64,000 bases of DNA from a virus. Lineage: Duplodnaviria > Caudoviricetes. This document shows positions 1,065 to 46,397 of this stretch, piece by piece; the first letter of the stretch is position 1, and each line of letters opens with the position of its first letter. The notes under the pieces are model-generated. The model was not told the origin of the DNA. It made no database searches and saw only the letters and a list, made by a program, of their open reading frames with translations. The translations under genes and the position numbers were made by a program. Location of the stretch: the IMG/VR virus record IMGVR_UViG_3300020577_003313. One strand, given 5' to 3'.

Positions 1065-1084
1065 TCACCCTCTCTTGCCTGCCA

Positions 1085-1141: not shown

Positions 1142-1171
1142 TTGATACGGCGCAATCTTAGCAACTATAAC
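1142..1171 (+). promoter_or_regulatory. possible sigma70-like promoter with A-tract UP element
   Basis: TTGATA-N18-TATAAC, upstream A-tracts, SD AGGAG at 1173-1177; the implied start site sits awkwardly close to the SD. Confidence 0.3.
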
Positions 1172-1187
1172 TAGGAGTTATACAATT

Positions 1188-1646: not shown

Positions 1647-1677
1647 AAACAAACCTAACCAAATAAGAGGAATAAAT

Positions 1678-26139: not shown

Positions 26140-27726
26140 ATGACTAACTATCTTCCTGGTATCGGTGTAACCATAAACGATTCGGGCCTTAAACTTGGTC
26201 AGCCACCGGCTGGACCAAAGGTCACTCTTTTAGGTGTTACCTCAAATACTGGTTTGCTAATTAGAGAGCCATACACAATTGCCTCAGTAGAGAAGGCAAT
26301 GAACTCTCTGTATTTCGACTTTTCAGGACTTTCAATCCCTGGAGGACTTGCCAGTCAGTCTGGTAGAGTTCCAGGAGAATTAGCTCTAGCAGTAGAAGAA
26401 GTTTCTGCGGCTGGAACCTCAAACATTGAGGTAATGATCATAGGATGCTATTCCGGATCTTACCTACAAGATTACTTAAGAGCAGATATTGACAAGACTG
26501 GAAGATATCTAGACTTGTCTGGTGCTTACGATATCTTGAGAAATAGAGAACTAGATGTAGTTGTCCCAGTCGGGGTCTACATGGACGATCTATTTACTGG
26601 ATCACTAGGATCGACTTGGAACTTTGGTAAGCAGCTAGCCAATTTCTGCTTCCAGGCTACAGCCGAATCTAGCGCGACTCACGGTGTTATTGGTGTAAGA
26701 CCAGTCCTTGAGTGGGCTACGTGCAACAGAACTGGATTACTCCCAGTTAGCTCCTCTCTGTCTGGTGAGCTAGTCTCACTATACGGAATGGCTGCAACTG
26801 GACAATTCAATACAAACGCTCTAATTGCCCAACAGTTCAAGGCAAACGCTTTCAGCACTGCAAGCACTGCGCTAGTTAATAGCTGGCAGACTTACATGCT
26901 AGGCGACGGTGTTGGTCTTTACAACCCAACATTCACAGCTTGGTTAGCTGGAGCAAAGGATCAGTTTGGTAACAAGCTATCTGCAATCGACGTAAATACA
27001 GCTTCTAGCGTAAACAGCGCCTACTTCCCATACTGGCAAGCAGTTGACAGTGATGGTGTCGTGGCATTTGACTCTAGAGGAGTGAAGGTAGATGCTGGCG
27101 CATACATTAGCGTGTTTGCGGCACCTCTACGTCACGTCGGTACTCTAGTAAGACCATTGGCTCTAGCCCTTGGAGCTTCTCCAGCACTGACAAGCAGAAA
27201 CACATCTGCTGCGGCAGCTTATGCTGGTAAGATCCTAAGCTTGGCGCCTCAGTCTGGAACGACTTTCAAGGCAATTGATGGTCTAACCCAGCTGAAGCTA
27301 CTGTCTGCAAGACAGGCTAATGATTTGCTTGGAATGAGATATGTTACTATGTATTCCAGAACTAAGGGACTAGTAGTAGCACAAGGTGTTACTGGCGCAT
27401 ATAACGTCAGTAAGTATGTAAGATCTGACTTCGTCAACTTGACCACGGTTAGAATCGTGGCTGCTGTTGTCGATCTGATCAGAGCTGTCGGAGATAAGTA
27501 CATTGGTGAATCCAATGATGCAGCTAGAATCAACGCATTCGATGCTGACGTTCAGCAGGTATTGGGATCTATGAAGGGTGCCGGAGCTCTAAGAGCTGCC
27601 GACTACTCGATCTCTTCATCTCCTGACGAAAGAGTCCTAGGCATCATCAATGTTAACTTAACTATAGTACCAGCTTTCGAAATCGTTAAGATTAACTTAA
27701 CAGTATCCCTGTCTAAAGGAGAATAA
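26140..27726 (+). CDS. tail sheath protein
   Basis: YLPGIGVTIND N-terminus; C-terminal LTTVRIV...KYIGESN...VNLTIVPAFEIVKINLTV sheath signature. Confidence 0.92.
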   Translation: MTNYLPGIGVTINDSGLKLGQPPAGPKVTLLGVTSNTGLLIREPYTIASVEKAMNSLYFDFSGLSIPGGLASQSGRVPGELALAVEEVSAAGTSNIEVMIIGCYSGSYLQDYLRADIDKTGRYLDLSGAYDILRNRELDVVVPVGVYMDDLFTGSLGSTWNFGKQLANFCFQATAESSATHGVIGVRPVLEWATCNRTGLLPVSSSLSGELVSLYGMAATGQFNTNALIAQQFKANAFSTASTALVNSWQTYMLGDGVGLYNPTFTAWLAGAKDQFGNKLSAIDVNTASSVNSAYFPYWQAVDSDGVVAFDSRGVKVDAGAYISVFAAPLRHVGTLVRPLALALGASPALTSRNTSAAAAYAGKILSLAPQSGTTFKAIDGLTQLKLLSARQANDLLGMRYVTMYSRTKGLVVAQGVTGAYNVSKYVRSDFVNLTTVRIVAAVVDLIRAVGDKYIGESNDAARINAFDADVQQVLGSMKGAGALRAADYSISSSPDERVLGIINVNLTIVPAFEIVKINLTVSLSKGE

Positions 27727-30397: not shown

Positions 30398-31021
30398 GTG
30401 AGCGAGACGAAAGAATTAGTCCATCCTGATGTAGGTTTTGGGCTGCTCGAAGCGCGACAACGTTTCGAGCGGCTTTTTTTGTTTAGACTGAAAGGTAAAA
30501 CCTTCATATTCAGACCACTCACAATAAGTGAGTGCGAGTCAATATTTAGTCTTGCAGACTATGTAGATAGCTTTGTAGTAGACGATTGGATCGTTACTAA
30601 AACTGCTATATCCGGAGATGTGAACTGGCTTCTAAACGAAGCCATGGCAGGGTATACTGCTAGCGTTGCTAGCTATATAATCAAAAAATCTACCCTGAAG
30701 GACGTGGAAGAAATTGCTATTCTCCTTGATAAGGAGAGAGAATCTAAATCAGCGATCTCGTGTGTCTTAGATTCTATGGTAATGCTGGCCGCTGGCCACA
30801 TCGTCAAAGATTCTAAGTCACTAACATACCGACAGCAAATTAAGTATGTAGCATTTGCTGAAGATGTACTATCCAAAAAATTGGAGCTAGCTAAGCCTTC
30901 TTCTCTACCAGAGAACAAGAAAAACAGAAAGCTTAGTCCAGAAGCTGCAAGAATACTCAGTAAAGAAGCTGCCGATAAACCAAACTTCGAGAAAGACAAC
31001 GAAGCACTTAGAAACGTGTAA
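30398..31021 (+). CDS. tail assembly chaperone B (paralogue of A)
   Basis: FIFRPLTISE motif; GTG start; same frame as chaperone A. Confidence 0.6.
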   Translation: MSETKELVHPDVGFGLLEARQRFERLFLFRLKGKTFIFRPLTISECESIFSLADYVDSFVVDDWIVTKTAISGDVNWLLNEAMAGYTASVASYIIKKSTLKDVEEIAILLDKERESKSAISCVLDSMVMLAAGHIVKDSKSLTYRQQIKYVAFAEDVLSKKLELAKPSSLPENKKNRKLSPEAARILSKEAADKPNFEKDNEALRNV

Positions 31022-34000
31022 TGGCTGATAACTACATCAACCAAAAAAGGCAGCAAGAACTAGCCAACCAACATAAGGACAACCTTTGGTGGTTGTACCC
31101 TATGGGAGCGGGACTGGGCGCTATTGGTCTTGGTGCTTTCATATACAAGTCTACAGCGAGCCAGGGCGGTACTGTAGTATCTAACTTAATGCACTTCCTA
31201 GGCAGACCTAGGGGCGTTGCTGTAAATGTAGATACCATATCTAATGCTGGCCCTAGTGCTCCATCTTCGGGAATGTCTGGAATCAGATCATTCCTCAGTG
31301 CCACATTCAATATCAGCAAGCAAAAAGTTGATCTAGGCCCAATAGATCTGATTAGAGATCTCGGGGGATCTCTAGAAATCATTGGCAATACTAGAGCCCC
31401 GGTTAGAGAAGCTGTTCAGAATAGAGTTACTGAAGCTATAAACAGACGTTATGTCAATAACGCCAATACCGCGAGTTTCTTTTCTCAGAACTTACAAAGA
31501 GTAACTGTAGGAGAAGTACTACAGAATAAAGACATTTGGTCTAACTTAATAGGGCTTCACCAGTGGAACGTTCTTTCTGCTGCTTCTTCTAGAAACTTAG
31601 TTAGTGCTTCAACTCCTCTAGATAGGAATATATTCAAGACTAGCACTGGATATCTGAGAGATACCAGAATTAGAAATATATTCATGAGGTCGGAGAATGG
31701 ACAGCTAAAGCCTAAGATCGACTTCTTCTCGCAGTTTAGCTCAATCAAGTCCTTAATGGGAGAAGGCAATAGATTTGCTGTACTCAGAAATACTCCAAAT
31801 GTAAAAGGAAACAGTTACTTTATAGACGGAAATGTCTATGCCTATACTAAAAGTACTGCTGGCAATTTTACAGAACATCTAGTAGAAACTGGTAAGATTC
31901 TCAGAAACAATGGAGATAGATTAGAACCTATAAGAGCTGCTAAAGAAGGCAGGCTAAAGTTTGATCTCAAGATAAGAACCTCACCGCTCGGAGGACTAGT
32001 TACTCAGTTCGAGAAAGCAACAGGAGTAGGAACTAGCTTTCAGAATAGATACACATTTGCGCAGAGATGGTTGGTCAACCCAGTAAAGAGACTAGCAGGA
32101 CTATCTTCTGGATTTGCCCAAGTTAGAAAGATACAAGTACTCAATTCTAACAGAATTGAAGGTATCATTGATGAGTTCGCGGGATCTACAACCCCAGAGA
32201 TTGTAAGACAAGGACCCAGAAAGACTATCATAGTTGGTGATCATGTAGATTTCAAGTCCCTTTCTGGATTTGAAAAGATAGCTACTATCTTTGGTCACAG
32301 TAACAAACATACTCTAATTAACTCAGGATCTGGTTCTTATTACGATTCTATCCTTACAGGCGGAGTAGAACCTCACCTACGGCCTAAAGATTGGTTTATT
32401 CCTAAGCCTCCAGAAGGAGGCTTCAAGATAGAGAGTACTAAGTCAGAGTTTTATACTGCTCCAGAAAGTAAGCTAATTCCTGGAATTACTTCCTTAAGAG
32501 ATTTCGCTAGCTACTCTATGTACAGAGTTAGCCACTTGGCTTCTGAAACTCTATTCGGAATCAGCTTTGCTCCTTCTGCATCGTTCTTGGGTAATGCAGC
32601 AAGACTTGCTGCTATACCAATGATATATGAAGCAGGTAGACAGTTAGTTAATTACGCAGATTATGGTCTAGAATCTACAATAGGATTCTCTCCTATAAAA
32701 GCTGCCGCGACTATCTATACTAAAATAAGAGAAGCTCAGCAGTCAGTTAGATCTAGCTTAGGTATTCAACAAGCGGCTGCTGAACTAGAAAAGAACTTCC
32801 CAGGATCTATGGATACGACTGGGTCGTTAATTGCTAGAAGTATTGTTGCTCCTGCTATAGCGTTTGCTTCTTTATCCAAGTTTACGTCAATAGGTAAAGC
32901 TGCTCTAGGAGCAGCGGGTGTATTTGGGTTAATAGGAGGATCTGATGTTCAGCAAACTCCTGAAGCTCTTGCTAAAGAATATGCAGGAGATATAAAAGTA
33001 CCAGTAAGAAAAGGTAGATGGTGGAGCATTGGCGGTACGCCATATGAAGGCGGAGATATAGAAAGATTTGACTACAGCTGGTACCACAAGCTAAAGAGCG
33101 ACTATAAGAACAAATCTATTTACGGATCTTCGGATGAGTACTGGAAGTACAACGCTAATGTGTTCGGTATTCCATTACCGACTCCTAGCAATTGGTTTGG
33201 ACTAAGAAACATTCTTAATCCTTACAGGGCCGAGATAATCAATAAAGATTCAAGACCTTACGAGGAGACCGCGCCAGCTCTCAGTGATATACCAATATTT
33301 GGTCCAGCACTAGGAGAAACAATAGGAAGACTAATGAAGCCTTCGGCTTCTAGAGTTCCGGGACCAGTAGCTGAGGTAGGTCTTGTACCAAGAGGTCTTA
33401 CAGCTTCTGATGCTAGATCTCTAGGTATTCCAGAGATGAACATCTCTGAGATAGATTTCTCCCCATCTCTTCTAGACAAAGTAAAGAAGATGGCGGATGT
33501 TGCATCCGAACCTATCGGTGTGTATAAGTTCGTGATGGAATATTTTGGTATACGGCTCGAACCTAAGAAAGAACAACTAGCTACTTCTTCTAATATAGAC
33601 TCAGTAGGGAAAGGTCTCTATGACATGGACCTTGGCGGCGGCCTAGGTCAGACCGAATTCCTAAGAAGATTCATGCTGAGCGATTACCATGATAGCTCGC
33701 AGACAGCTAGAATGGTTAACAGAATCAGAAATAATATGCCAGACTGGGTGCCCGGATCTGGCTCTGTCTTTGAAAAAGACAAAGATTACTACATAGACTA
33801 TGGTACCGGATCTCCGTTTGATAAGCTAACGCAAGGAGAAGCGAGATTACCTGGTAGAGGCTACGAAAGCTTAAATAAACTAGAGTCAGGACAAGAGCGA
33901 GTTTATAGCCCTGTAGACAGATTACTCATTCTATCAGACATAGCTCCATACTCAGAAGCATATAAGTATTACGACAATTTAGTTTCTAAGATGAAACTTG

Positions 34001-35226
34001 CCCCTGAGTGGCAAGAAAAAGTTAAACTAGCTAGGGAGTATAAGGAAAAATCTACTAGAATTGATAATAGGTTTCCTAGATATACAGATTCCCTTATTGC
34101 CATTAACGAAAGAATCAAAGACTCAGCAGCATATAAAACTACTAGAGGAATCTACGATACTATAACACATGATGTTCTTAGCGAGATCCCACTGTTTGGA
34201 AGTAAACTGTTCCCATTTAGGGACAGCTATGAACGATACAGAAAAGAGCACATAGAAGGTTCTCAGTTTGCTTCATGGTTTACTCCATGGGAAGACATAC
34301 AAAGACCAGCTCTAACTGATATGGCTTTGTCTAATCCATTAGTCGGAGCCCTGAAGGGAGGAACTATAGGATTCTTGCTAGGAGGACCAATGAGTTGGGC
34401 AAGTCCTCTGTCCATAGGACCTTCTACCTCTATTGTAGGAGGTATGATAGTTGGAGGAGCACTAAGCGCGGGTCGAATTGCTCTTGGAGTCTCAGATAAC
34501 TATGTTCCGGATCATGTTAGAGAAGAATCGAATACTAATATGTACTTAGATTCTCTATCTTACATAAAGAACAGAGCTCTCGAAGAGAGAGCTAATAGCA
34601 TGGGCGTTTCTTCTTCTGAGTTTAGAAAGAATGCTAGAAAGACTTTAGTCGGCGCAAATACTCCAATTATGTTAAGAGCTTCTCTTCCGACTTCTCTAGA
34701 TAAGAAATATTTTGATCAGTTCCTAGAGACTCCAGTCGGTAATAGAGAGCAACTCCTTGCAGGAGTGTCTCCTCATCTAGCTTATGCTCTAAACAAAGCA
34801 TGGGGCATGGGCTACAATAGCCAACAGTCTGCTGATACAGAAGCTGTAGCAAGAGTATCAGATGTAGGTGTTCCATCTTTTGATTCCTTAGCCTGGCATC
34901 CAATGGTAGACAATAGGTCAATGGGACTCAAGCTAGTCACCCACGGACTTAATGGAGTTAGCGATAACTACCACAGATATGGCTTCTATGAAGCCAACGA
35001 AGCTACCATAAGAACAAGAATGCCAGATCTTTGGAACGAATCGACTACTTTCGTAAGTCCTCCTAACTTTGCTAGCGCAAAGGAATACATACAGAACATT
35101 GGCCAAAATATTGATGGCAGGGTTACTACTTCTGTAACCTACACTCCATACAGAGCCAAATATACTCAGAAGCTGCAAATAGATAGAAGTAAAGATAATC
35201 TGCCGATTATTCAAGGTAGGTACTAG
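31021..35226 (+). CDS. tape measure protein
   Basis: 1401 aa after the chaperones; helical Ala/Gly-rich stretches and several hydrophobic segments. Confidence 0.7.
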   Translation: MADNYINQKRQQELANQHKDNLWWLYPMGAGLGAIGLGAFIYKSTASQGGTVVSNLMHFLGRPRGVAVNVDTISNAGPSAPSSGMSGIRSFLSATFNISKQKVDLGPIDLIRDLGGSLEIIGNTRAPVREAVQNRVTEAINRRYVNNANTASFFSQNLQRVTVGEVLQNKDIWSNLIGLHQWNVLSAASSRNLVSASTPLDRNIFKTSTGYLRDTRIRNIFMRSENGQLKPKIDFFSQFSSIKSLMGEGNRFAVLRNTPNVKGNSYFIDGNVYAYTKSTAGNFTEHLVETGKILRNNGDRLEPIRAAKEGRLKFDLKIRTSPLGGLVTQFEKATGVGTSFQNRYTFAQRWLVNPVKRLAGLSSGFAQVRKIQVLNSNRIEGIIDEFAGSTTPEIVRQGPRKTIIVGDHVDFKSLSGFEKIATIFGHSNKHTLINSGSGSYYDSILTGGVEPHLRPKDWFIPKPPEGGFKIESTKSEFYTAPESKLIPGITSLRDFASYSMYRVSHLASETLFGISFAPSASFLGNAARLAAIPMIYEAGRQLVNYADYGLESTIGFSPIKAAATIYTKIREAQQSVRSSLGIQQAAAELEKNFPGSMDTTGSLIARSIVAPAIAFASLSKFTSIGKAALGAAGVFGLIGGSDVQQTPEALAKEYAGDIKVPVRKGRWWSIGGTPYEGGDIERFDYSWYHKLKSDYKNKSIYGSSDEYWKYNANVFGIPLPTPSNWFGLRNILNPYRAEIINKDSRPYEETAPALSDIPIFGPALGETIGRLMKPSASRVPGPVAEVGLVPRGLTASDARSLGIPEMNISEIDFSPSLLDKVKKMADVASEPIGVYKFVMEYFGIRLEPKKEQLATSSNIDSVGKGLYDMDLGGGLGQTEFLRRFMLSDYHDSSQTARMVNRIRNNMPDWVPGSGSVFEKDKDYYIDYGTGSPFDKLTQGEARLPGRGYESLNKLESGQERVYSPVDRLLILSDIAPYSEAYKYYDNLVSKMKLAPEWQEKVKLAREYKEKSTRIDNRFPRYTDSLIAINERIKDSAAYKTTRGIYDTITHDVLSEIPLFGSKLFPFRDSYERYRKEHIEGSQFASWFTPWEDIQRPALTDMALSNPLVGALKGGTIGFLLGGPMSWASPLSIGPSTSIVGGMIVGGALSAGRIALGVSDNYVPDHVREESNTNMYLDSLSYIKNRALEERANSMGVSSSEFRKNARKTLVGANTPIMLRASLPTSLDKKYFDQFLETPVGNREQLLAGVSPHLAYALNKAWGMGYNSQQSADTEAVARVSDVGVPSFDSLAWHPMVDNRSMGLKLVTHGLNGVSDNYHRYGFYEANEATIRTRMPDLWNESTTFVSPPNFASAKEYIQNIGQNIDGRVTTSVTYTPYRAKYTQKLQIDRSKDNLPIIQGRY

Positions 35227-38200
35227 TGTCAAGCTCTTCAGATAACCCAATTGGTAATATTTTTGACAACGTGATGGGCTTTAGCAAGCCTAAAAACGTT
35301 AGCGAATACCTAGACAGAATGCGGGGTCTATCTGATGATAATACTCCGCTATCTTATCTATTACAGAGAAAAGACAAGTACAATATCTTCGGAAGAGCCA
35401 GAGGTACTGTCTGGCAGAGAACTGGCAGCAAAGCAGATCCTATTACTCCAAACAGTTACCAAGGATCTCCTTTTGAGGTTCTTTCTCCTAATAGATATGC
35501 CTCTCTTCCAGGAGTAAATCCTACAAGAGCTAGAATGTTGCAGAAGTATAACCTGCATCTAGCTCACTCTAGTTCTCTAAAGGAGATGTACTTACTTGGT
35601 ACAGATGGATGGCAGGGTGCTCTTCCAATACAAGAAGGCGGTCTTGTACATACAGGAGGCTCAGTAAGAGGAGCTTATAGGCTAAAGTACACTGATTCTT
35701 TAGGAGAAGAAACATATCACTCTCTATTCTATCAAAAACTAGATGAACTCATAGGTCGAAACTTACCAAGAGGAAAGTTCTTAAGAGAGTTCAGAAAGAT
35801 TAACGAAAGTGTAATTGGTACAGGTGTAAAAGGAAAACTAAAGCTCGGCGCCTTGTTAGGCAGCCCTGTAACAAGAAGAGGTAGTGATATAGGTTTATTT
35901 AACGCTCAGTCTCATGAGCTGAGAATGAGAGTAGTCGATAGACCTGGCGCTTCGGAAAGTGATATAATTTCCAAGTTCAAGCAGTTTAAGCAAGACACAA
36001 GAACTATCAATCTCTTAGTAAAGACTAAGGGCAATGTGATACCTGACTACCTACCGGATTCAAATGCCCTGACGGCATTTGACCAAGCTAGAAGAGGTAT
36101 AGAGTCATTCCATGAATGGCTCCCTTCTATGTACGCAAGGCTTGGAATTTCTGGTATGCATCAGCTTGCAAAAGCTGATTATTTAACTGGTCAGAAAGGT
36201 CTAGTACTACCAAGCAGTATAGGCAAGGAAGTATTTGGAAGCTTTGCTTCTATTAGAGAACAAACTAAAGGTTTGTTCCAGGAATACAATAGAGCATATT
36301 TCACGAAAGGCCAAAGAGAGCATATCTTTGCTACCCAAGGTAGCCCGATAGCGTCATTTATGACTGCTGCCGAAGATAGAAAATATGGTCCTTGGTTAAA
36401 GAGAAAAGCTAAGATAGCTATTGTAGACTTTAAGTCTATGCAGGATGAATTACTTACTGTAGGTGATTCAGGTTTTGCAATGACTTACAAAGGCTCTGTA
36501 AGAGCCGCTTCTCATCAATACATTGGTTCTTTAAGAATAGCTGCGCCAGATCAGCTAAAAATTAGTGCGGTAGAAGATCTACTAGGAGTCTCTAATCCTC
36601 GCGGGATAGTCAAGAGTGCTGTTCCAATTTCCTTTACTAAAAAGGAACTCGAAAGAGCAAGATGGAGTAGACGGTATGCGCAGAAAAATTCTCTGCCTAC
36701 TTTCTATAAGTGGGGCGACCTAACTGAAAAAGAAAGAGCACTTAGAGTTTTAGCGAGATCTAAATCTTCAGGAGTCCTAGATGCTGTAGCTAATCATGGA
36801 GGAAGTGTATTCGCTACTGTAACTCATAAGAGTGGTAAGCTATCCATAGACTTCCTGACTAGTAGATTGCTCAATCCTGGCACGGCAGAAATGTTGGTAG
36901 GCGGACTCCGTATGACCGGAACTACCACTACTGCTGACAGTCCTATACACACTGCTTTAAATACTCTAGCAGATAAGCACGGAGTGGAATTAGTAATATC
37001 CGGATCATCTGCGTCCAAGATGAGAGAGTCCAGTATTATTACCGGGTTCCTCCATGAGATGGAAGAACAAGGTAAACTAGATGAAGCAATAAAGATACTC
37101 GGAGGAAATAAAGGTAATACCACTTACGGAGACATTCCTGTAGTAAAAGATTTTGAATCTGCACACAGAGCCGCCCTACAGTATATCAAAGATTTAGAAA
37201 AGTCTAAGATAAAGAAAAACATAAAGATAGCAGCTAGAATGCGGCGCGGTAAGCAAATTTCTGCTGCCGTGTTTGGATTGCAAGATATTGCTCACTCTGT
37301 AAGTATATTCAATGCCGACATATCTCTAAGAGCAGATGCAACTCTAGATATGAACTCCGTCAATCCTGGAAGAATAACTCCAGGAAAGATGAAGACTATA
37401 GCTCTTGCTGCTAGATTAAGAGGACACAGTAATCCTTATAATGATGTTGTATTTAGAACTCTGGCAAATCACTGGAAGAGTTCTCACTTTGGATATGATC
37501 ACTCGACTATGGATTTCAGACTTGGTTCTGAAAGTCCTATCCTTAAGTGGACAGAGGCGATAAACGGTAGTCCTATCTCTCATAGAGTAGAGGACCTCGG
37601 TAGAAATCTAGTTATTTCTAGACACGGAAATAAAGTCTGGGCTAAGGGTGCAAATGCTAGTTACATGCTAAAGACTCCTAGACGCGAAGCGTTTAGAATG
37701 TCTGCTGATGGCATGAGCTATGACGAGCTGTCTAATACAATTCTAGACAGAAGATTTAGAAACAAGATGGCTTACCTAGATCTAGGAAAAGAGATGAACC
37801 TAGATCTGCTTGGACAAAACAAGTCTATTCGTTATCTGCCAATACCTCTGGAACTGTCTAGAGTAAGTGCGACTGACCATAGAGTCATTATGGATGATAA
37901 GCATCCATTTGCATCTTACATGGATCTTCTAAGAGAGTATTCTGCAAACGGAAGCGATACTCAGAAATTTGCTAAGCTTGCTAGAACAGCTACTGAAGGA
38001 ATGTACAAGTCCATACTTGGTAAAGATGGACTACTAGCTAAGACAAATATAATTCATCTTAAGAATTCTCTACCATTTAGACTAACAGCCCAAAGAGGAA
38101 ACTACTGGAACAAGGGCAATATGTTCTCGGCAGAGAACTTCTATGATATCCAGGTATCTAGAAAGCAGTTTTCTGCTGAAGCTCTTAAGAAGATGGGCTA

Positions 38201-39824
38201 TTCAGAGGAAGACGCCCGCAGACTAATAAAGTCTGCAAAAGTTAGAAAGTCTATGTATGTGATGCTAGGAGCAGATCCTGCTCAGCGTCCAGAACACATA
38301 GGCCAGATATGGAGATTAGTATTTAATGATTCTGATAATGTAGGAAAAGATTTCAGACTAACCGGAGCTACTCACCCAATAGCTCAGAGAATGTTGGAAA
38401 GAGACAACGACATGGATAAGTTGTTTCTGCACTTCATCGGCCACGAAGCTGAAAAAGCAGAAGGCATAGCAGTAAACAGACAGTTTGCCAGTATTATTGA
38501 GCAACAAAAGAAGGCAGTTGCTCCAGTACTTAACTTTGTAAAGAGCGAAATAGAGAAAGATTACGGAAAGTCTTCTTCTGGAAGGACAGCTATACTCAAA
38601 GATATAATGGAAGCCTACACAGGTCAAAAGACCTGGGCGTCTTTGGGATATACAATAACGAGACCAGACGAAAGATTAATTCATACTATCTTAACAGAAG
38701 GCGCGGAAGGTCTCAAAGCAAAAGGAATTTCTCTAGGAACTAAAGCTGGACTTAACGAATTCCATATTCAGCAAATGCGTGCTGCACTAGGAGGAGAAGC
38801 CTATGCTCCTGCTATGGTGCTAAGTCAGTATTTATACCAGGGCGGCGTTACTAAGGGTGGCGTTAAGGGAAGCTTGCTCGATCTTTCTAGAGCACTTATA
38901 GAAACTGCACAGAAAGCTAAGACTCAGGACCTAGATCTAGATGAAGCGTTTAGAACCGGAAAGCAGCACATTCTGGATTTTATTGAGGGTTCCGATAAGA
39001 ACAGACTATGGGCTACTACTGAGTATTTAGTAAATAAGATCAATAGACGTAGCTCCACTCCTCTAGTCCTTCAGGGACTAGCAGAAGGTTCTGCTGAAAT
39101 GGCTAATGCCAGAAAGGCAGTGTTTGACGAAGCTGCCGACCTAATGTCAAAGCTAATATTTGGTAGTGCCGCAATTCACGGGGCTATGGGCAGGGGTGTT
39201 AGCAATCTAACTGCTGTAATGGAAGATAGAGCGCCAACTGAAGGTCCTCTTCATCCTAGATCAGTATGGAATAGATTCATTGCCCCAGTACTTGGCTTTG
39301 GACAAGCTGGAACTCCTCCGCCCTCTAGTGAGGGCGCAGCTACTCAAGTACTAGGAACTGCTACTGGACCTACCGTAACTCCTGCCGAATCGCCCACGTC
39401 CAGATCTTTCAGATCTTCATTCTCTGAAATTGGAGAAAACCTATTAAGTAACTTTAAGAGTATATCTAAGAGCAAGTATCTTTGGCCTTCTGTTGGTGGC
39501 CTAGCAGCCATTGGTGCATATGGCTACATGTCTAGACCTGACCTTAGTTCTTCTGACATGCCGCCTCCAATGGATGTTTCTATGCCTACAGACAGAGGAC
39601 CGGATGTGCCGGATTATTCTAATGTAGCTAGAGTTAATAACTCTAGGCCAATAGCGCCTGCTTCTAGACTTAGAAAGCAATTTAACTATAACCAAGTCTC
39701 TACTAGCAGATTCCCAGGTAGATCTAGTTCAAATGTAATTATAGAAGACAGGACTAGCCCAACTAGTCCTTGGTTAATTAGACAACAAATGCAAAAAGTC
39801 AGCGAAAGCGACTTTGTGAGATAA
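35226..39824 (+). CDS. putative single-chain two-barrel (beta/beta'-like) virion RNA polymerase
   Basis: Ordered motifs KIAIVDF..GDSG, LLNPG, GVELVISG (beta-like), then YLPIP, ILGKDGLL, VMLGADP, HPIAQRMLERDNDMDKLFLH (beta'-like). Confidence 0.65.
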   Translation: MSSSSDNPIGNIFDNVMGFSKPKNVSEYLDRMRGLSDDNTPLSYLLQRKDKYNIFGRARGTVWQRTGSKADPITPNSYQGSPFEVLSPNRYASLPGVNPTRARMLQKYNLHLAHSSSLKEMYLLGTDGWQGALPIQEGGLVHTGGSVRGAYRLKYTDSLGEETYHSLFYQKLDELIGRNLPRGKFLREFRKINESVIGTGVKGKLKLGALLGSPVTRRGSDIGLFNAQSHELRMRVVDRPGASESDIISKFKQFKQDTRTINLLVKTKGNVIPDYLPDSNALTAFDQARRGIESFHEWLPSMYARLGISGMHQLAKADYLTGQKGLVLPSSIGKEVFGSFASIREQTKGLFQEYNRAYFTKGQREHIFATQGSPIASFMTAAEDRKYGPWLKRKAKIAIVDFKSMQDELLTVGDSGFAMTYKGSVRAASHQYIGSLRIAAPDQLKISAVEDLLGVSNPRGIVKSAVPISFTKKELERARWSRRYAQKNSLPTFYKWGDLTEKERALRVLARSKSSGVLDAVANHGGSVFATVTHKSGKLSIDFLTSRLLNPGTAEMLVGGLRMTGTTTTADSPIHTALNTLADKHGVELVISGSSASKMRESSIITGFLHEMEEQGKLDEAIKILGGNKGNTTYGDIPVVKDFESAHRAALQYIKDLEKSKIKKNIKIAARMRRGKQISAAVFGLQDIAHSVSIFNADISLRADATLDMNSVNPGRITPGKMKTIALAARLRGHSNPYNDVVFRTLANHWKSSHFGYDHSTMDFRLGSESPILKWTEAINGSPISHRVEDLGRNLVISRHGNKVWAKGANASYMLKTPRREAFRMSADGMSYDELSNTILDRRFRNKMAYLDLGKEMNLDLLGQNKSIRYLPIPLELSRVSATDHRVIMDDKHPFASYMDLLREYSANGSDTQKFAKLARTATEGMYKSILGKDGLLAKTNIIHLKNSLPFRLTAQRGNYWNKGNMFSAENFYDIQVSRKQFSAEALKKMGYSEEDARRLIKSAKVRKSMYVMLGADPAQRPEHIGQIWRLVFNDSDNVGKDFRLTGATHPIAQRMLERDNDMDKLFLHFIGHEAEKAEGIAVNRQFASIIEQQKKAVAPVLNFVKSEIEKDYGKSSSGRTAILKDIMEAYTGQKTWASLGYTITRPDERLIHTILTEGAEGLKAKGISLGTKAGLNEFHIQQMRAALGGEAYAPAMVLSQYLYQGGVTKGGVKGSLLDLSRALIETAQKAKTQDLDLDEAFRTGKQHILDFIEGSDKNRLWATTEYLVNKINRRSSTPLVLQGLAEGSAEMANARKAVFDEAADLMSKLIFGSAAIHGAMGRGVSNLTAVMEDRAPTEGPLHPRSVWNRFIAPVLGFGQAGTPPPSSEGAATQVLGTATGPTVTPAESPTSRSFRSSFSEIGENLLSNFKSISKSKYLWPSVGGLAAIGAYGYMSRPDLSSSDMPPPMDVSMPTDRGPDVPDYSNVARVNNSRPIAPASRLRKQFNYNQVSTSRFPGRSSSNVIIEDRTSPTSPWLIRQQMQKVSESDFVR

Positions 39825-39828: not shown

Positions 39829-40383
39829 ATGACAAGTGTAACAGTTGTAATTGGAAATCCCATCTCTACATATAGCTATGTGAACTACTATAGCGTTACA
39901 GCAATAAGATCCATAGTACTTGTTGTACAGAGACCTGTTGGTAGTTCTTATGTCAGAAAGCAACATAGCGTTACACTAGGTTACGGTAAGGTCATAACCC
40001 CGTTTAGAATAAGTACTTCTTCTAGAATACCTACTCTACAGAATGTACTTCATACATTTGGAGTATTCGTTCCCTTACCTCAGATTACAACTCTCAATAA
40101 CATAAGAGAGTCGTCCGCTGTAAACACTTCTCAAGTACTTCCTACTCCAAGAAATAACGATCCAGAGTCTCACATTGCAGTTGCAGAATTGATCTCTTCT
40201 GGAGGAAGCTTAGACGGGCTACCAGAAGGTAGCCGACAAATTATTGCCAAAACTGTTACGCCTAACGTAAAATCTTCGAAAGAAGTATCTGTTGTTATTT
40301 CAACACTAGCAAATAATTACGGCGCTAAGTCTAATCCTAGACAGATCACCACATCATATTCTAATAGAATCAGAAGATCATGA
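39829..40383 (+). CDS. Ser/Thr/Val-rich hypothetical protein
   Basis: 184-aa ORF, ATGA-coupled to the next gene. Confidence 0.65.
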   Translation: MTSVTVVIGNPISTYSYVNYYSVTAIRSIVLVVQRPVGSSYVRKQHSVTLGYGKVITPFRISTSSRIPTLQNVLHTFGVFVPLPQITTLNNIRESSAVNTSQVLPTPRNNDPESHIAVAELISSGGSLDGLPEGSRQIIAKTVTPNVKSSKEVSVVISTLANNYGAKSNPRQITTSYSNRIRRS

Positions 40384-43300
40384 CGTCAACTAGCCTACAG
40401 ATTGGTCCATATACTTTTCAACATTCTGTACAAAGTATTGTTCTCCAAGAACAGAAAGCTCTGAATGCGGCGGAAACTACCAGATCTAGTAAGAACCTTA
40501 TTATTGATACTGGAAAAACTTCCAGTAAGGCAGTTATTCAGTTTCTGTTTTCTGGTATTAACGAGATAAATACTGACGCTAGAAGATTAATAGCATTATT
40601 TAGATGCTGTCCAGTGATCTCATGTAAAAATGAGATGATCTCTAACTCTTGGAAGCCTCTGACAAATCAAACAAAGAAAGATACTGATATCTTACCAAAA
40701 GATACAGCTGCTGTAGATAGAACAGAATATAACCAATTTGTTCCTGTTGGGCTAGAAGAAATATCAATAAGTTCGGTTCCAGATTTGCCATTTTGTATTT
40801 ACCTTACTCTTACTCTATCTAAGATAGATGTTTCAAACGCTACGTCTGGAGATATTCTGTATCAGGACGAGAACCCCGCGAATAGATGGACAGATCCAGC
40901 AAAAGCTTTCTGGCTAAAGAAATGGGTAGACACTATTCTAGAAGATCAAAAAATTCCTATCTTAATCAGAGAGGACTTCGATAATATATCCTTTGAATGG
41001 TTTGGCAAAGATATCTTTGGGGATAGGGTCACGTCAAATAATATCCCTGGTAGAATTAACCTAGAACAAGACAGCCCATATTTAAAAATACAAGCAGAGA
41101 CCTGTACCATAAGAAATAACTTTGTGTACAATACCCTTATCGGTAAGGGCTCTCCTTCTCCTCAGCATATGGGTTCTACCAGTAGGTATTACTCATTAGA
41201 TATCCTATCTAATGGTCAGACTGACTCTGGAGAGTCAGAATACAAGATGCTTCAAACTTTTAAAGAAGCATCCGACGAGATGGCGAGATCTAAAAATAGA
41301 GAGAACAGAATCATTGGATGGGCAGTCACAAGTCCTATTTCAAAACTTTTAGCAGTATCGTCTTATCCAATAAGATACCGGTCAGGTATCTTTGTTCCTA
41401 TAACTGTAAGCCAAGAGACTTCATCGGAGCCATTTGTAAAGACCATATCTATTGATATGATCGAAAACAATGTTGATTTCTTTCAGCAAAATGAAATCCT
41501 CCTTACTGAAGGAGGAACTGATTATGATGATCTACTAGCTTACTACAAGAGACTTACTGAAAAAGAATATCAGTTCAGAAAGAACAAGCAAACGCCGGGC
41601 TATGTAGATTCAGCATTGAGCGGAACATCAATACAGAGTCAAGAAGAATATGACGCGTGGTCTCTATTCTGGCCAATCTCTTCCCCAGGATATACTTGGG
41701 TAAAGAACACAGATATCTTCGGTGTTCTCTCTAAAGAAACTCTAAAGGCAGTGTTCTTAGATCCGGAGTACGATACTAAGGAAAGACTAGCAATAGCGTT
41801 AAACCAAGCTATTTTAGTTGTAGGAGAGACTCTGTCTGGTTCAAGACAAGTACCTATTTGGACAAAGACAAAAATAAATCTAGACCAGATAAGATCTCTA
41901 GTAGCAGGTTCTGATAGTGATGAGAAAGATCTAGCATCTATATTCATAGCTATTAAAGATCTAGTGTCTACTAAGATGATACTCGGAGCAGATGAAACTG
42001 CTATAAACTTTCTATCCCAGAAAATATTCCTGTCTTTCTTAGGAGATTTTGACGGAGTGTTGGATGTCAACACAGAATCCGGATCTGTGGTTCAGATCCT
42101 AGCAGGATCTGTTTATCAATTTCATCCAGATTTCTTAAGTGCTTTATTCAGAGTACTAGTAGAGAGAAGAAAGCCTCCTCAGTTTAAGATACCAGCATAC
42201 AGCATTGATGCTGTAAACACTAGCTTCTTTAAGCTAATTGCAGCATTTGCAAAAGACAACAATAAATTACCGATCTACAAAGAGCCAGAACCGGGTACTT
42301 CTAATGACAACGCAAAAGCATTAAGTGTTGTCAAAGCAAATAATAGATGCCTTTACCCTGATCTGCTATTGCCGACATATGGCGAGCTCTACGAGGATAA
42401 GTGGACTCTGTTCGCTCCTACCTATAATGATTTTGGTATTATCAATAGAAAGCCTAGCAGTGATTCTGTTATTGCAGACAACCCTCAAAATGAAATAGCA
42501 GTATCTATTGACGACTATGTTTCCCCAGCTGCTTGGTTCTTTAATAAGAAATTCAAAGAAGGATTGGATAAGCTTCTATCCTTTGTAGATAAGGATGCCA
42601 GTGCTGCCGCTGCTGTGGGCCATAACCTAGTAATATCCATACCTTTTGATACTGATGAGATCGAAGAACTAGAAGAACTTCTGCAAAAGAAAGAAGAAGA
42701 TAACCCGACCTACAGAGCAGCTTCACTACCCACAATCATAGAAAGATCTGAATCAATAATTAGGAATGCTATCCAGCGCCAACTGGATAATCCTAATCAA
42801 AAGTTCTACGATAGCTTAAAACAGCTAGAAATAATTGATGCTAACGAAGCTCTAAGACAGCAGTATCTTTCTAGCTCCTCCAAAACTGTATCAATTCTAC
42901 AGTCTAACGCAGGTAGTATTACAGTAAAAAGAAAGTTAACAGCTCCTGGTGTCGCTGGAGCTATTGTCAGAGTCTTAAAAGAGTACAAGCTTTTATCCAC
43001 TAGTGATAGACTGCCCAGACTCGATGCCTACGAAGAGTATAGATCCGCCGACAAGACATCAGAATTCAAATTCATTAGAGGTTTAGACGAGAACACTCAA
43101 CAGAGTGTGAAGTCTATGATTGACCAGCTTCCTGATACATATGAAAGTATGGTCAAACTATTCCCTGCTTGTAAGGTGTACTTAGTAGATAAAAGAGGAA
43201 CTGATATCGTCGGAGACGATAGTTTCTTTACAGTTAATCCAATTGTGTCTATAGATATTACACTAGACAAAGAAGAGGCAGATCTGGCAGTCATTAGGGT

Positions 43301-46300
43301 AGCTGATCCTATGTATATTCTGCAAAGAGATTACTTCCCTACTGGCGGCATCAATACAATAAAAGGTCAAGACGGAGCTACTTTAAGTAGAACAGTACTA
43401 GGTTCTTTAAAGGGTAATAATTTTGATCACTATCTAAAAAGATTTAAGCTAGCCCAAGGTAGAAGAATACAAATAAAGATGGGCTATGATTCTAATCCCA
43501 AAAATCTGAAAACAGTTTTCACTGGCAGAATAGCTGAAATAGAACCCGGAGATGTAGTTACAATTGTTGCCCAAGGATGGAAGGCCGAGCTCATGTCTAG
43601 ACAAGTAGCATTTGCTAACTCAAATGCTAAATCTTGGGGAGCTAAAGATCTTGCTGTACAAGCTATCACAGCAGCGAATCCAGACGGATTCGGAGACTTC
43701 TATGCTCAAAGAGATACCAATTTTATCTTAAGAAATCTACCTAGTGCAGATGCAGAAGAGCTAGCTAGACAAGTTCTAAGAGTACAAGAAGGTTCCATAA
43801 CAGAACACGGTGAAAGAGGATTCTTATCTTCTGCAAAGAACTCAGTAGTATCGTTCTTTGGTGGTACAGAGTATGATAAAGAAAATCCAGGTCTAGACAC
43901 AAGACTGAAGAATATCTGGTATCCAGAAATACCAGAGGTTAGTAACATTCTAGGATTGAGGTCTTTCTTTCAGATACTTCCTTCTCAGGTAAATGATAGC
44001 TGGGTTGTGCCTTTACAGCCAGCATGGGAAGTCCTTAAAGAGGCAGCCAGACATACTTGGAACTATATAGTTCAAGTTGTTCCATATGATGGAGAAGCTA
44101 CTATATTCTTCGGTCATCCGGATCAGCCTTACTACTACACGAAAGGTAACAAAATCTCTAGAACCTATTATGACAAATTCCTAGAAGGATTTGTCAAGTC
44201 CGGAGAAGATGTAAATAACTTAGTTTCTGGATTCTTCTCTAGTCCTTTCTATGGAGAAGGATATGTTCCTAATATAGATAACTTACAAAAAATTAATAAT
44301 GCCATCACTAACTCTTATGACAATGCTGAACTAGGATTCGCATCTGATAAGAAGATAAACAGTAAGTACGATTTGGGATCCTTCATAGAAAATCCAGAAG
44401 TCTTGGATGACTTTTATCAAGAACTGACTAAGTCTAGAAGATCGGCAGTTACATTTAGAGAAGCAAACAGATCCTATAAGATGCTAGAGCATCTGCTCAA
44501 TAGTAATCTATTTGGTAATTTATTTGTAAAGCTCGCGCTTAAATCTAAAGCTCCCTTAGCTGCTTATCAAGATTTAAAATCTACATACCTAAAGTCAAGA
44601 ACAGATACGATAATTGCCAAGCTATTCTTTGAAATGCCAGAGATAGAAGCGCAGGCTTATTTCTGGAGAAACATAGGCAGAGATATGGAAACACTGATGT
44701 CTCCTAGTGTAAATTTAGGAGATCTACAAGACATATCAAATGGAATGTCTGTTGACCTTTCTATAAAAGAAGTTATCATAAATGAGATCAACTCCATATA
44801 CAAGTCTGTAAGTAGTGCGTGGTATTATGACGTCGGTCGCACTCCTACTGTAGTTGTTAAAGATATTGACAATCTTAGAAACTTAGTTGTCTCAAAAGCA
44901 ACAAATCTTTACTCTAGATACTACACTAATGAACTATATGCGGCCAGCATTAAGTCTCTAAATGAAAAAATTGCCGAATGGGGCAATAACAAGATTACAG
45001 GAGAATCCACTAAGCAACTACAGTCTGTGGTCAGCTCAATAAGAGAATCCATAAAGAAGCTTAATCCTAAATTCTCTTCGATAAAGGAAGATATCCAATC
45101 TGAAACTCTGGTAGCAAAGCTAAGAATCTTTGTCTACTACCTAGCGGAATACCTAAAAAATGATTCTCAAGGAAGACTAGAGGCTGACAAGATATCAACA
45201 CTAGCTATATCTTTACCTCCCACAATGCAGGTATTTAGAGTGTTCCATAATATTGATAGCGATCACGATATTGTTTCAAATAATATCGTAGCTAGTACAA
45301 GAGATATGTGGAATACTGTTGTCATTGAGTATCCAGAAAGAGATGCGGCAACAGACAAGGTAGACGATGAAACAGCTCTATACAATAAGACTGAGTTCTA
45401 TAGCGGCATCAAGTGGGTATACTGGCCTAAGAATGAAGTCTCCGGTGTAGTAGGACTACAGTTTCATCCAGGTCTAACACTTGCAAATAAAAAGATTAGA
45501 GTATTTACTGAGATAAACTGCCAGGGCGGAGAGCTAGCTGCAAAGCTAGCTTGTAATAGATTGGCAGAAGGTCTTAGAAAGATGTACCGAGGAACCCTTA
45601 CCATAAAGGGCAGACACATAAAGCCGTATGACAGAATCATTTTAAACGATGATTACACGAATATGGTCGGCCCAGTAGAGGTTGAGTCAGTAGTCCATCA
45701 CTGGAATCTAGACACCGGATGGGTATCAAATATACAGCCGGAGGCTGTGTGTGATTCTAATGCGGGCGCAGCTGTAGTACAGACTGCTGCTATGGAAGCT
45801 CTATTTGATAAGGTATTCAGAACTACAGATTTCCTCACTGACCTAGTAACCTATTGTATAATTGTAGCCACTTTAGGTGGCGGCACTCCAATAGTTGGAG
45901 GTCAGTTTGCTGTTAAGAAAGGTCTGACCGGAGCTATAAAGAAATGGTGGGAAAAGGGAACTAAGGATTATATCTATGATAGGCTAATTGCTGGAAAAGA
46001 TAACATCCTTAAACTTAAGGACATAATAGCAGGACAATACAAAGATCCGCTGAATGCTCTCAGAACTATAATTAGAACATTCATCCAGGGACCAGGTGGT
46101 AAAATATTTGCTAGCCAGGTTATATCTGGAGCAGTAGATACACTAACTGATACAGCATTTAAGCTTACAGTATGTACATCTTTCGTTATGAATGCTCAGA
46201 AAGCTGAGCAATTACCAGTACTCCTTTCTCCTCTTTTATTTAATGGAATGCCGTTCCTTGCAGGATTGGAAACTGAAGATCCGATCTGGGCTGTATTCTT

Positions 46301-46397
46301 TAATGGAACTTTCTGGTCGTTAAAGGATATGCAATTAGGAGCGGCGGAATTCGTTAACGAAATAGGATTCGGAGAACTTCTTAAGGAAATCAAATGA
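40380..46397 (+). CDS. large baseplate hub-like protein (gp27/VgrG-like core with insertions)
   Basis: GRRIQIKMGY...VFTGRIAEI...VTIVAQG and YRGTLTIKG...IKPYDRI...VESVVHHW hub patterns. Confidence 0.7.
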   Translation: MTSTSLQIGPYTFQHSVQSIVLQEQKALNAAETTRSSKNLIIDTGKTSSKAVIQFLFSGINEINTDARRLIALFRCCPVISCKNEMISNSWKPLTNQTKKDTDILPKDTAAVDRTEYNQFVPVGLEEISISSVPDLPFCIYLTLTLSKIDVSNATSGDILYQDENPANRWTDPAKAFWLKKWVDTILEDQKIPILIREDFDNISFEWFGKDIFGDRVTSNNIPGRINLEQDSPYLKIQAETCTIRNNFVYNTLIGKGSPSPQHMGSTSRYYSLDILSNGQTDSGESEYKMLQTFKEASDEMARSKNRENRIIGWAVTSPISKLLAVSSYPIRYRSGIFVPITVSQETSSEPFVKTISIDMIENNVDFFQQNEILLTEGGTDYDDLLAYYKRLTEKEYQFRKNKQTPGYVDSALSGTSIQSQEEYDAWSLFWPISSPGYTWVKNTDIFGVLSKETLKAVFLDPEYDTKERLAIALNQAILVVGETLSGSRQVPIWTKTKINLDQIRSLVAGSDSDEKDLASIFIAIKDLVSTKMILGADETAINFLSQKIFLSFLGDFDGVLDVNTESGSVVQILAGSVYQFHPDFLSALFRVLVERRKPPQFKIPAYSIDAVNTSFFKLIAAFAKDNNKLPIYKEPEPGTSNDNAKALSVVKANNRCLYPDLLLPTYGELYEDKWTLFAPTYNDFGIINRKPSSDSVIADNPQNEIAVSIDDYVSPAAWFFNKKFKEGLDKLLSFVDKDASAAAAVGHNLVISIPFDTDEIEELEELLQKKEEDNPTYRAASLPTIIERSESIIRNAIQRQLDNPNQKFYDSLKQLEIIDANEALRQQYLSSSSKTVSILQSNAGSITVKRKLTAPGVAGAIVRVLKEYKLLSTSDRLPRLDAYEEYRSADKTSEFKFIRGLDENTQQSVKSMIDQLPDTYESMVKLFPACKVYLVDKRGTDIVGDDSFFTVNPIVSIDITLDKEEADLAVIRVADPMYILQRDYFPTGGINTIKGQDGATLSRTVLGSLKGNNFDHYLKRFKLAQGRRIQIKMGYDSNPKNLKTVFTGRIAEIEPGDVVTIVAQGWKAELMSRQVAFANSNAKSWGAKDLAVQAITAANPDGFGDFYAQRDTNFILRNLPSADAEELARQVLRVQEGSITEHGERGFLSSAKNSVVSFFGGTEYDKENPGLDTRLKNIWYPEIPEVSNILGLRSFFQILPSQVNDSWVVPLQPAWEVLKEAARHTWNYIVQVVPYDGEATIFFGHPDQPYYYTKGNKISRTYYDKFLEGFVKSGEDVNNLVSGFFSSPFYGEGYVPNIDNLQKINNAITNSYDNAELGFASDKKINSKYDLGSFIENPEVLDDFYQELTKSRRSAVTFREANRSYKMLEHLLNSNLFGNLFVKLALKSKAPLAAYQDLKSTYLKSRTDTIIAKLFFEMPEIEAQAYFWRNIGRDMETLMSPSVNLGDLQDISNGMSVDLSIKEVIINEINSIYKSVSSAWYYDVGRTPTVVVKDIDNLRNLVVSKATNLYSRYYTNELYAASIKSLNEKIAEWGNNKITGESTKQLQSVVSSIRESIKKLNPKFSSIKEDIQSETLVAKLRIFVYYLAEYLKNDSQGRLEADKISTLAISLPPTMQVFRVFHNIDSDHDIVSNNIVASTRDMWNTVVIEYPERDAATDKVDDETALYNKTEFYSGIKWVYWPKNEVSGVVGLQFHPGLTLANKKIRVFTEINCQGGELAAKLACNRLAEGLRKMYRGTLTIKGRHIKPYDRIILNDDYTNMVGPVEVESVVHHWNLDTGWVSNIQPEAVCDSNAGAAVVQTAAMEALFDKVFRTTDFLTDLVTYCIIVATLGGGTPIVGGQFAVKKGLTGAIKKWWEKGTKDYIYDRLIAGKDNILKLKDIIAGQYKDPLNALRTIIRTFIQGPGGKIFASQVISGAVDTLTDTAFKLTVCTSFVMNAQKAEQLPVLLSPLLFNGMPFLAGLETEDPIWAVFFNGTFWSLKDMQLGAAEFVNEIGFGELLKEIK

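Follow-up and report, generated by a model that had tools for sequence, protein, structure and literature searches.

A tail-module phage protein family with a predicted single-chain two-barrel polymerase fold and a non-canonical nucleotide-selectivity motif

In this study, we analyzed P0001, the product of a large open reading frame (ORF) in a 64,000-nucleotide (nt) stretch, here called the window, of the Caudoviricetes record IMGVR_UViG_3300020577_003313. We put at about 0.6 the probability that P0001 is an active single-chain two-barrel polymerase, likeliest a virion-delivered DNA-dependent RNA polymerase (RNAP), with a non-canonical selectivity motif. We infer its activity, the nature of its product (RNA or DNA), a compensating role of R1021 or R1059, and its packaging and injection. 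An earlier reading of the letters alone (the sequence-only reading) had proposed an RNAP active site with unusual substitutions between amino acid (aa) 549 and D1064, and had wondered whether the enzyme was altered, dead, or a scaffold repurposed for genome translocation. The RNAP assignment is borne out by the AlphaFold2 (AF2) fold, the strand topology, a weak local hhalign match and column conservation, and the three strings on which that reading relied lie where it had placed them: the translation of 35226-39824 contains GTAEMLVGGLRMTG (aa 552-565, nt 36879-36920), GADP (aa 1015-1018, nt 38268-38279) and DNDMD (aa 1060-1064, nt 38403-38417).

Searched exhaustively with HMMER, 1.84 billion representatives yielded 45 homologs of about 1150-1940 aa with 20-36% identity, all of them metagenomic and nameless ("hypothetical proteins"), which share a common N terminus (M1 and P8 conserved). 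One member, P0005 (MHA2065914.1), is incomplete; its 6.9-kb contig, which was assigned to a Candidatus Thorarchaeota metagenome-assembled genome, is probably a mis-binned phage fragment.

Predicted fold

The AF2 model of aa 300-1300, built with the 45-homolog alignment, has a predicted local distance difference test score (pLDDT) of 85.3 and a predicted template modeling score (pTM) of 0.87; model residue numbers given below count from the start of this segment. In the model, two double-psi beta-barrels (DPBBs), the beta-like one before the beta'-like one, precede a candidate bridge helix and a candidate trigger loop, as expected of the two-barrel superfamily. In the PDB, Foldseek gave nothing but beta'/Rpb1 chains among its 50 best matches (probability ~1), and an exhaustive VIA-align search places QDE-1 first (Z 12.0, 380 residues aligned, root mean square deviation 4.6, over model 1-946). 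In the same search, beta-type chains match model 1-410 (AR9 non-virion RNAP beta-like, Z 9.6; Pol I A135, Z 9.0; African swine fever virus; bacterial beta), beta'-type chains match model 450-960 (Pol I A190, vaccinia Rpo147, Rpb1 and beta'; Z 7.5-9.4), and isolated and designed DPBB domains match model 648-772; further matches are P74-26 gp62 (Z 9.5), P23-45 gp96 (Z 9.0), crAss gp66 (Z 6.9, 451 aligned) and Pol IV-RDR2. In the ESM Atlas, the nearest shapes (TM 0.45-0.50 over 557-600 residues), from phage and bacterial clusters, all carry PF00562 and PF00623, and the matches in BFVD include viral RNAP subunits. As modeled, P0001 is a single-chain, beta-then-beta' two-barrel polymerase fold, and because these structure searches match two-barrel RNAPs, the RNAP reading holds despite silent sequence profiles.

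The best viral match in BFVD is A0A8S5SD80 of Siphoviridae sp. ctnpt50 (E 9e-9), annotated as "Minor tail protein", and another is the uncharacterized A0A075BUT7 of Microcystis phage MaMV-DC (E 2e-5). These two suggest that more unrecognized members reside in tail modules, including those of a cultured cyanophage lineage.

Catalytic motifs and their conservation

A DxDxD string by itself is expected by chance in a protein as large as P0001. Here, the three Asp of this acidic a-motif, D1060, D1062 and D1064, are present in all 45 homologs, none of them ever lost, in agreement with the earlier claim that the metal ligands remain. The only match of the family profile to rpoC, between P0001 1046-1090 and E. 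coli beta' 446-481, is weak (pairwise E 0.02) and sets the three Asp on D460, D462 and D464, with E1058 on N458 and R1059 on A459; the position taken here by R1059 is G, A or V in all other families compared. Secondary structure assigned by DSSP to the second barrel runs from strand 949-953 (with R952) and strand 974-978 through helices to strand b3 at 1009-1015, the loop of P1018 and H1024 with a short helix at 1022-1025, strands b4 at 1028-1034 and b5 at 1046-1049, helix 1051-1056, the Asp loop and strand b6 at 1065-1069, which is the order of beta' (...VLLNR / APTLHRLG / IQAF... / AIQL / HPLVCAAY / NADFDGD / QMAVH). The replacement of DFDGD by DNDMD, which the sequence-only reading had pointed out, is correct yet unremarkable, since phage single-chain RNAPs vary between the Asp: within the P0001 family the two intervening positions are T/L/V/N/F/A and R/K/N/M/A/L, and elsewhere the loop reads DNDGD in YonO, DSDFD in CAC1139 and DFDID in crAss gp66.

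The a-, b- and s-motifs of the two-barrel superfamily were defined by Zatopek et al. (PMC7708050). The Arg of the R-x-P s-motif is described as strictly conserved in two-barrel RNAPs, and in QDE-1 (R962-S-P964 of the Pro gate) and multisubunit RNAPs it hydrogen bonds the 2'-OH of the nucleoside triphosphate (NTP) (PMC9508822, PMC7708050). In P0001, A1016-D1017-P1018, which follows a strand ending at G1015, occupies the R-x-P position of beta' NRAP, gp96 FRNP, gp64 NRRP and SREP of gp036 from Acinetobacter phage ME3. The Ala that had been noticed in place of the NTP-contacting Arg is confirmed, and homologs carry only Ala, Val, Ile or Phe there (Table 1). The loop around it is otherwise strongly conserved (D1017 44/45, P1018 45/45, Q1020 45/45, R1021 44/45, E1023 42/45, H1024 45/45) and three residues longer than RxPxLH; the corresponding region of gp64 reads NRRPDLPTGQ. 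Chaban et al. filtered phage RNAPs by the pattern [RK]xPx{20,100}DxDxD, which none of the 45 members satisfies at the canonical site. Nor does the family carry the PolD version of the s-motif: position 1019 is T16/M15/A9/L2/V2/S1, never His.

The b-motif corresponds to the b3-b4 hairpin of the first barrel, which in beta carries GDKMAGRHGNKG. Its conserved columns in the family are E555 (36/45), G559, R561 (32/45, Leu in P0001), R562 (44/44) and position 564 (39 Thr and 5 Ser), with R562 the sole strictly kept basic residue. Counterparts in other enzymes share a K-G pair (AGLKGTV in gp96, AWKGVI in gp64, SAKGMW in QDE-1, NKGV in beta), also found in PolD. Two registers are possible from the alignments: R562 may lie on the canonical Lys (GGLRMTG against AGLKGTV) or, in a gapless version that matches D1064/E555 and the glycines, two residues before it. 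The b-motif Lys of beta, Tth K846, is strictly conserved throughout the superfamily, whereas K838 is restricted to multisubunit RNAPs and PolD (PMC7708050). Single-chain enzymes normally lack the first beta Lys; as far as the alignment can tell, the loss of the Pro-gate Arg and the replacement of the strictly conserved Lys by Arg are real departures.

These motifs are part of a wider pattern, in which 13 of the 14 columns invariant across the 45 homologs fall in five catalytic elements: R952 in the first strand of barrel A; P1018, Q1020 and H1024 in the Pro-gate loop; R1059, D1060, D1062 and D1064 in the Asp loop; G1141 and Y1142 in the bridge helix; and Q1205, V1208 and K1210 in the trigger-loop-like hairpin. 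The GQ-x7-G spacing of the bridge-helix candidate is identical in P23-45 gp96 and gp64, and the V1208/K1210 pair resembles V1115/K1119 of QDE-1, where V1115, D1116 and K1119 contact the base, the 3'-OH and the gamma-phosphate. Such invariance is the pattern expected under selection for catalysis and argues against a dead scaffold, so that the suggestion of a dead or repurposed enzyme finds no support. That basic residues are lost was also an overstatement: besides R562, R1021 and R1059, the family keeps R702 (44/44), R/K716 (42), K721 (40), R952 (45/45), K1210 (45/45) and K1214 (36/45), and K721 sits in a P-x-K-M string resembling P-S-R-M of beta. The block from R702 to K721 (Table 1) would, by its pattern and secondary structure, be equivalent to b5 and helix 2 of the first barrel.

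Candidates for compensating the missing Pro-gate Arg are R1021, in the lengthened loop, and R1059, before the first Asp. P0015 is the sole member with Ser at 1021 and also the sole member with Arg at 1058 (RRDTDKD). This single case may be a compensatory pair joining the Pro-gate and Asp loops and hints that one Arg is needed where the two loops meet. Moreover, SREPAQG of ME3 gp036 stands against GADPAQR of P0001; together with the P0015 pair, this contrast, a single case as well, hints at a relocated Arg in the P0001 family.

Several results weigh against the polymerase reading. P0001 gave nothing in Pfam at E<=0.1, including PF00623 and PF00562, and nothing in PHROGs; phmmer and profile hmmsearch against PDB sequences returned noise alone; and hhalign of the family profile against rpoB, P23-45 gp64 and gp96, and ME3 gp036 gave no signal (probability <1% for gp96 and gp64). 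At the motif level, no family member has a Lys in aa 552-567, as the b-motif would require, none of the 45 has a basic residue at position 1016, the Arg of R-x-P, and P0001 itself lacks three basic residues usual in its relatives (R561L, R950P and R1063M). Yet the silence of Pfam says little, because PF00623 finds nothing in P23-45 either, a phage with two experimentally proven two-barrel RNAPs; it is likewise silent in Bacillus phage 0305phi8-36, despite a reported YonO-like gene. The substitutions are real and family-wide, because position 1016 is never basic and the hairpin is free of Lys across the homologs: the column check confirms the sequence-only reading that the beta lysines are not evident and that one Arg is left in P0001, where 32 of the 45 have a second Arg, and shows that the lack of Lys is shared by the whole family. 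The three replacements R561L, R950P and R1063M are the reason why P0001 looked so poor in basic residues.

Further searches extended the family no further: a word-indexed search of 5.8 billion proteins recovered the query alone, tblastn against 50,697 phage records found no match, a pattern scan of IMG/VR recovered no relative, an ESM Atlas feature search gave no usable lead, and hhalign of the family profile against CDS0026 and CDS0027 of Moorella phage MTATph1 gave no signal. A match to Synechococcus phage S-BM3 (E=2, relaxed second-barrel search) was discarded as spurious, being on the strand opposite to the annotated gene.

Gene slot and probable virion delivery

Two other contigs keep the same arrangement of genes: sheath, tube, small genes, ~1440-aa gene, polymerase gene, ~2020-aa hub gene and Baseplate_J gene. 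The P0001 gene begins with a GTG that overlaps the stop codon (TAG) of the 1401-aa gene upstream, giving TAGTG (35224-35228), and the 1401-aa protein is homologous to 0305phi8-36 gp145, ME3 gp035 and MTATph1 CDS0026 (BLASTP E 1e-25 to 1e-17), of which gp145 is a virion protein by mass spectrometry, according to its record annotation. The slot between the gp145-like and hub genes holds P0001 here, the fold-related, polymerase-like gp036 with canonical motifs in ME3, and non-polymerase virion proteins in MTATph1 and in 0305phi8-36, where the occupant is gp146. The slot is not always held by a polymerase, because no DxDxD occurs in 0305phi8-36 gp145 or gp146 or in MTATph1 CDS0026, CDS0027 or CDS0032. 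Virion packaging and ejection would be the most likely biology of P0001, favored because of the conserved synteny, the slot neighbors, the conserved C-terminal tail, and the precedent of P23-45, whose virion RNAP is fused to the tape measure (PMC10770324). The C-terminal tail, with its Gly-rich hydrophobic segment, is possibly a region of membrane or tail-lumen interaction.

Proposed mechanism and alternative explanations

In the mechanism that we propose, P0001 would be assembled into the particle along with the tail proteins, enter the host and transcribe the first phage genes. Two Mg2+ held by D1060, D1062 and D1064 of the second barrel would drive catalysis, and the nascent 3' end and the NTP phosphates would be held by R562 (in place of the beta Lys), K721 (PxKM) and K1210 (trigger-loop-like hairpin). 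A selectivity loop [A/V]-D-P-x-Q-R-x-E-H would replace R-x-P-x-L-H, and the ribose might be sensed by D1017 and E1058 together with a relocated Arg, either R1021 in the longer loop or R1059; it would be read differently because the nucleotide-selectivity loop is non-canonical.

Since the Arg that senses the 2'-OH and the Asn preceding the three Asp are both replaced, an active two-barrel polymerase with altered chemistry may also be considered: one that discriminates poorly between ribo- and deoxyribonucleoside triphosphates (rNTPs and dNTPs), favors either dNTPs or modified NTPs, or works on an unusual template, either RNA or single-stranded DNA. Position 1016 is A/V/I/F in 45/45 and E1058 stands in place of beta' N458; PolD, the only two-barrel DNA polymerase, is hydrophobic at the same position (GLAPHT; PMC7708050); and QDE-1, the best solved match, uses RNA and DNA templates. 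We nevertheless regard this as unlikely: the steric-gate His of PolD at P+1 is missing, with T/M/A/L/V/S at 1019, QDE-1 makes RNA though it likewise lacks the Asn (GGDYDGD), D1017, E1058, R1021 and R1059 could restore ribose recognition, and the known virion-delivered two-barrel enzymes are DNA-dependent RNAPs. A similar idea, also unlikely, would be that this lineage of virion-delivered two-barrel enzymes rebuilt its nucleotide pocket, in which the longer D-P-x-Q-R-x-E-H loop and the E-R pair preceding the three Asp took over, and so acquired a novel sugar or substrate selectivity; if true, the pocket might tolerate dNTPs, 2'-modified or otherwise unusual nucleotides, unlike every characterized two-barrel RNAP. 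The position of the gene bears on another explanation, namely an active RNAP made after infection, like P23-45 gp64, that is not packaged and lies in the tail operon by accident. Phage RNAP genes can occur anywhere, and the ~200-residue connector is kept, unlike in the flat, clamp-less gp96. We hold this for quite unlikely, given the start/stop overlap with a homolog of a virion protein, the strict retention of the position between gp145-like and hub genes in three contigs and ME3, and the poor fit of late structural-operon expression to an early enzyme unless it is packaged.

The loss of the canonical Arg and Lys, the location amid tail genes, the hydrophobic and Pro-rich C-terminal tail, and the non-polymerase proteins without DxDxD that the cultured relatives 0305phi8-36 and MTATph1 have in this slot could all be accommodated by a catalytically dead polymerase fold retained in the tail for a structural or ejection role. 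This is very unlikely in our view, as the invariance among the 45 homologs is centered on elements that a scaffold would not need (the three Asp and the Pro-gate loop, together with the bridge helix and the trigger-loop hairpin), and no member is without any of the three Asp. We give next to no weight to the idea that P0001 is no polymerase at all but a cell-wall-degrading tail protein with DPBBs of the expansin/RlpA type. Such lysins are frequent in tail modules, and VIA does match single barrels to expansins and to a baseplate protein of a cyanophage (Z 5.1-5.7); these matches, however, span about 85-90 residues, whereas the RNAP matches cover 260-450 over both barrels and the following helices (Z 9-12), the DxDxD is exactly in the beta'-type loop, and the nearest Atlas shapes all carry RNAP domains.

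Comparison with known two-barrel enzymes

P0001 has a close known counterpart in gp96 of P23-45 (8H2M/8H2N; PMC10770324), the virion RNAP of that phage and likewise a single-chain two-barrel protein encoded in a tail module. The similarity of P0001 to gp96 and to gp64/P74-26 gp62 is structural only (fold match Z 9.0-9.5). In the P23-45 RNAPs as in the P0001 family, only the Asp are conserved within DxDxD, and both are invisible to Pfam. However, gp96 and gp64 retain R-N-P and R-R-P and the Lys of K-G, where the P0001 family has [AV]-D-P and Arg. Further, gp96 is fused to the tape measure, whereas P0001 is encoded by a separate gene adjoining that of a long, putative tail-lumen protein; gp96 is clamp-less, whereas P0001 has a connector of ~200 residues; and P23-45 is a siphovirus, whereas the P0001 phage is contractile-tailed and of ~177 kb.

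QDE-1 (7Y7P, 2J7N; PMC9508822) likewise has both barrels and a bridge helix in one chain, with a rigid trigger loop that bears a V...K pair. It differs in its Pro gate, where R962-S-P964 contrasts with the A/V at the Arg position of the P0001 family, in its Asp loop (GGDYDGD as opposed to ERDxDxD), and in its biology, which is RNA silencing. YonO-like fused beta-beta' RNAPs, too, combine both barrels in one chain, and the Asn of DNDGD is shared with P0001 as the second residue. The nearest Atlas clusters, which are YonO-like, are mostly from Uroviricota and recognized by Pfam, unlike the P0001 family, and YonO-type genes, as in 0305phi8-36, lie outside the tail module, whereas the P0001 gene lies inside. 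The crAss-like phi14:2 gp66 (6VR4) is a virion-delivered single-chain two-barrel RNAP with a non-Gly DFDID, akin to what we propose for P0001; it has 2180 residues, about 1600 of them in unrelated domains, belongs to a podovirus-like phage, and matches P0001 with a lower Z (6.9). DP2 of PolD (PMC7708050) is the only described two-barrel polymerase without the s-motif Arg and is hydrophobic there (GLAPHT), like the P0001 family; its steric-gate His at P+1 is absent from the family, and PolD is not among the fold matches listed.

The closest counterpart in position is gp036 of ME3 (vB_AbaM_ME3, 1603 aa, L007:24172-28983), which occupies the same slot between gp145-like and hub genes. The P0001 model matches A0A172Q021_2 in BFVD (E 7.8e-5, 732 columns), an 802-residue fragment of an uncharacterized ME3 protein that is taken as half of gp036. 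In gp036, as in P0001, some 40 residues separate the s-motif from a DxDxD, and [D/E]NPI occurs near the N terminus; gp036 keeps the canonical Arg (SREPAQG) and GGDHDQD, and the two proteins have no significant sequence similarity. ME3 gp036 is likely an unrecognized tail-module two-barrel RNAP of a cultivable phage. In the literature searched, we found no published description of the P0001 family or of an RNAP in ME3.

Phage-delivered single-chain two-barrel RNAPs are known from few systems, namely crAss-like gp66 and P23-45 gp96 (virion-delivered phage RNAPs as a functional class also include N4 vRNAP), and the P0001 family would extend this class to contractile-tailed phages of ~170-190 kb. 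It is, in the literature searched, the first RNAP-like two-barrel family in which every member lacks the R-x-P Arg while the remaining catalytic apparatus is strictly conserved. In published work, this Arg counts as strictly conserved and has even been made a search criterion; screening by motif overlooks whole families of phage RNAPs, just as Pfam-based screens miss phage RNAPs of the P23-45 or 0305phi8-36 kind. The P0001 family may thus serve as a natural experiment on ribose selection in an ancient polymerase fold, at the divide between RNAP and PolD.

Gene features and genomic neighborhood

The features of P0001 and its neighbors are listed in Table 1. In the N-terminal region (aa 2-345), which bears the conserved DNPI motif at aa 6-9, a wide VIA search gave generic helical-hairpin matches alone (Z<7) and recognized no known fold.

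Table 1. Features of the polymerase-like gene and of the surrounding structural module (coordinates in the window)
Feature	Coordinates	Strand	Remarks
Polymerase-like ORF (product P0001, 1532 aa)	35226..39824	+	GTG start; single-chain two-barrel RNA-polymerase-like
N-terminal region, aa 2-345	35229..36260	+	Beta-rich domain and long helical hairpin; AF2 pLDDT 83
Beta-subunit-like half with first DPBB, aa ~300-735	36123..37430	+	VIA matches
b-motif, b3-b4 hairpin of first barrel (GTAEMLVGGLRMTGTT)	36879..36926	+	Strands 553-558 and 561-567; two-residue GG turn
Conserved block R702-x-D704...D708-x-N710...R716...P719-x-K721-M	37323..37397	+	Resembles beta DIVLNP...VPSRM
Inter-barrel connector, aa ~736-940	37431..38045	+	Between beta- and beta'-matched ranges; model pLDDT 58-90
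Beta'-like half, aa ~941-1260	38046..39005	+	Second DPBB, bridge helix, trigger-loop-like hairpin
s-motif/Pro-gate loop (VMLGADPAQRPEHIG)	38259..38303	+	Position 1016 A26/V16/I2/F1
a-motif, catalytic Asp loop MLERDNDMDKL	38391..38423	+	E1058 43/45; R1059, D1060, D1062, D1064 45/45
Bridge-helix candidate, aa 1124-1157, GQKxxASLGY	38595..38696	+	G1141, Y1142 invariant
Trigger-loop candidate, helix-loop-helix, aa 1196-1216 (LSQYLYQGGVTKGGVKG)	38811..38873	+	Q1205, V1208, K1210 invariant; K1214 36/45
C-terminal tail	39477..39821	+	Gly-rich hydrophobic segment YLWPSVGGLAAIGAYGYM (aa 1418-1435), conserved Pro-rich stretch, terminal SDF motif
Large terminase gene	6780-8708	+	
Portal gene	10647-12791	+	
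Major head protein gene	15222-16604	+	
Tail sheath gene	26140-27726	+	
Upstream 1401-aa gene	31021..35226	+	Translationally coupled to P0001 gene; BLASTP and record annotation
Downstream 2005-aa gene	40380..46397	+	Baseplate hub/cell-wall lysin type protein
Baseplate wedge gene	47966-49120	+	

The window is a plus-strand structural module of a contractile-tailed phage, whose contig measures 176,613 bp. The nearest relative of its terminase is that of MTATph1 (32% identity), with ME3 and 0305phi8-36 more distant. The upstream 1401-aa protein, which has a Gly-rich hydrophobic segment close to its N terminus, is a candidate for the true tape measure or, alternatively, for a protein of the tail lumen. 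The downstream 2005-aa protein contains a segment matching phrog_20474 "endolysin" (aa 1617-1796, E 1e-32, PHROGs) and resembles the hub/lysin proteins ME3 gp037 and MTATph1 CDS0032 by BLASTP; it is probably a baseplate hub or cell-puncturing lysin rather than a tape measure. Between the polymerase gene and the hub gene lies a 184-aa ORF (39829-40383), the counterparts of which differ in size, with 172 aa in relative contig L003 and 937 aa in L005; similarity to the L005 protein is confined to the last ~54 residues. Finally, the first part of the window (1-2000) has a G+C content of 50%, compared to about 40% over the remainder.

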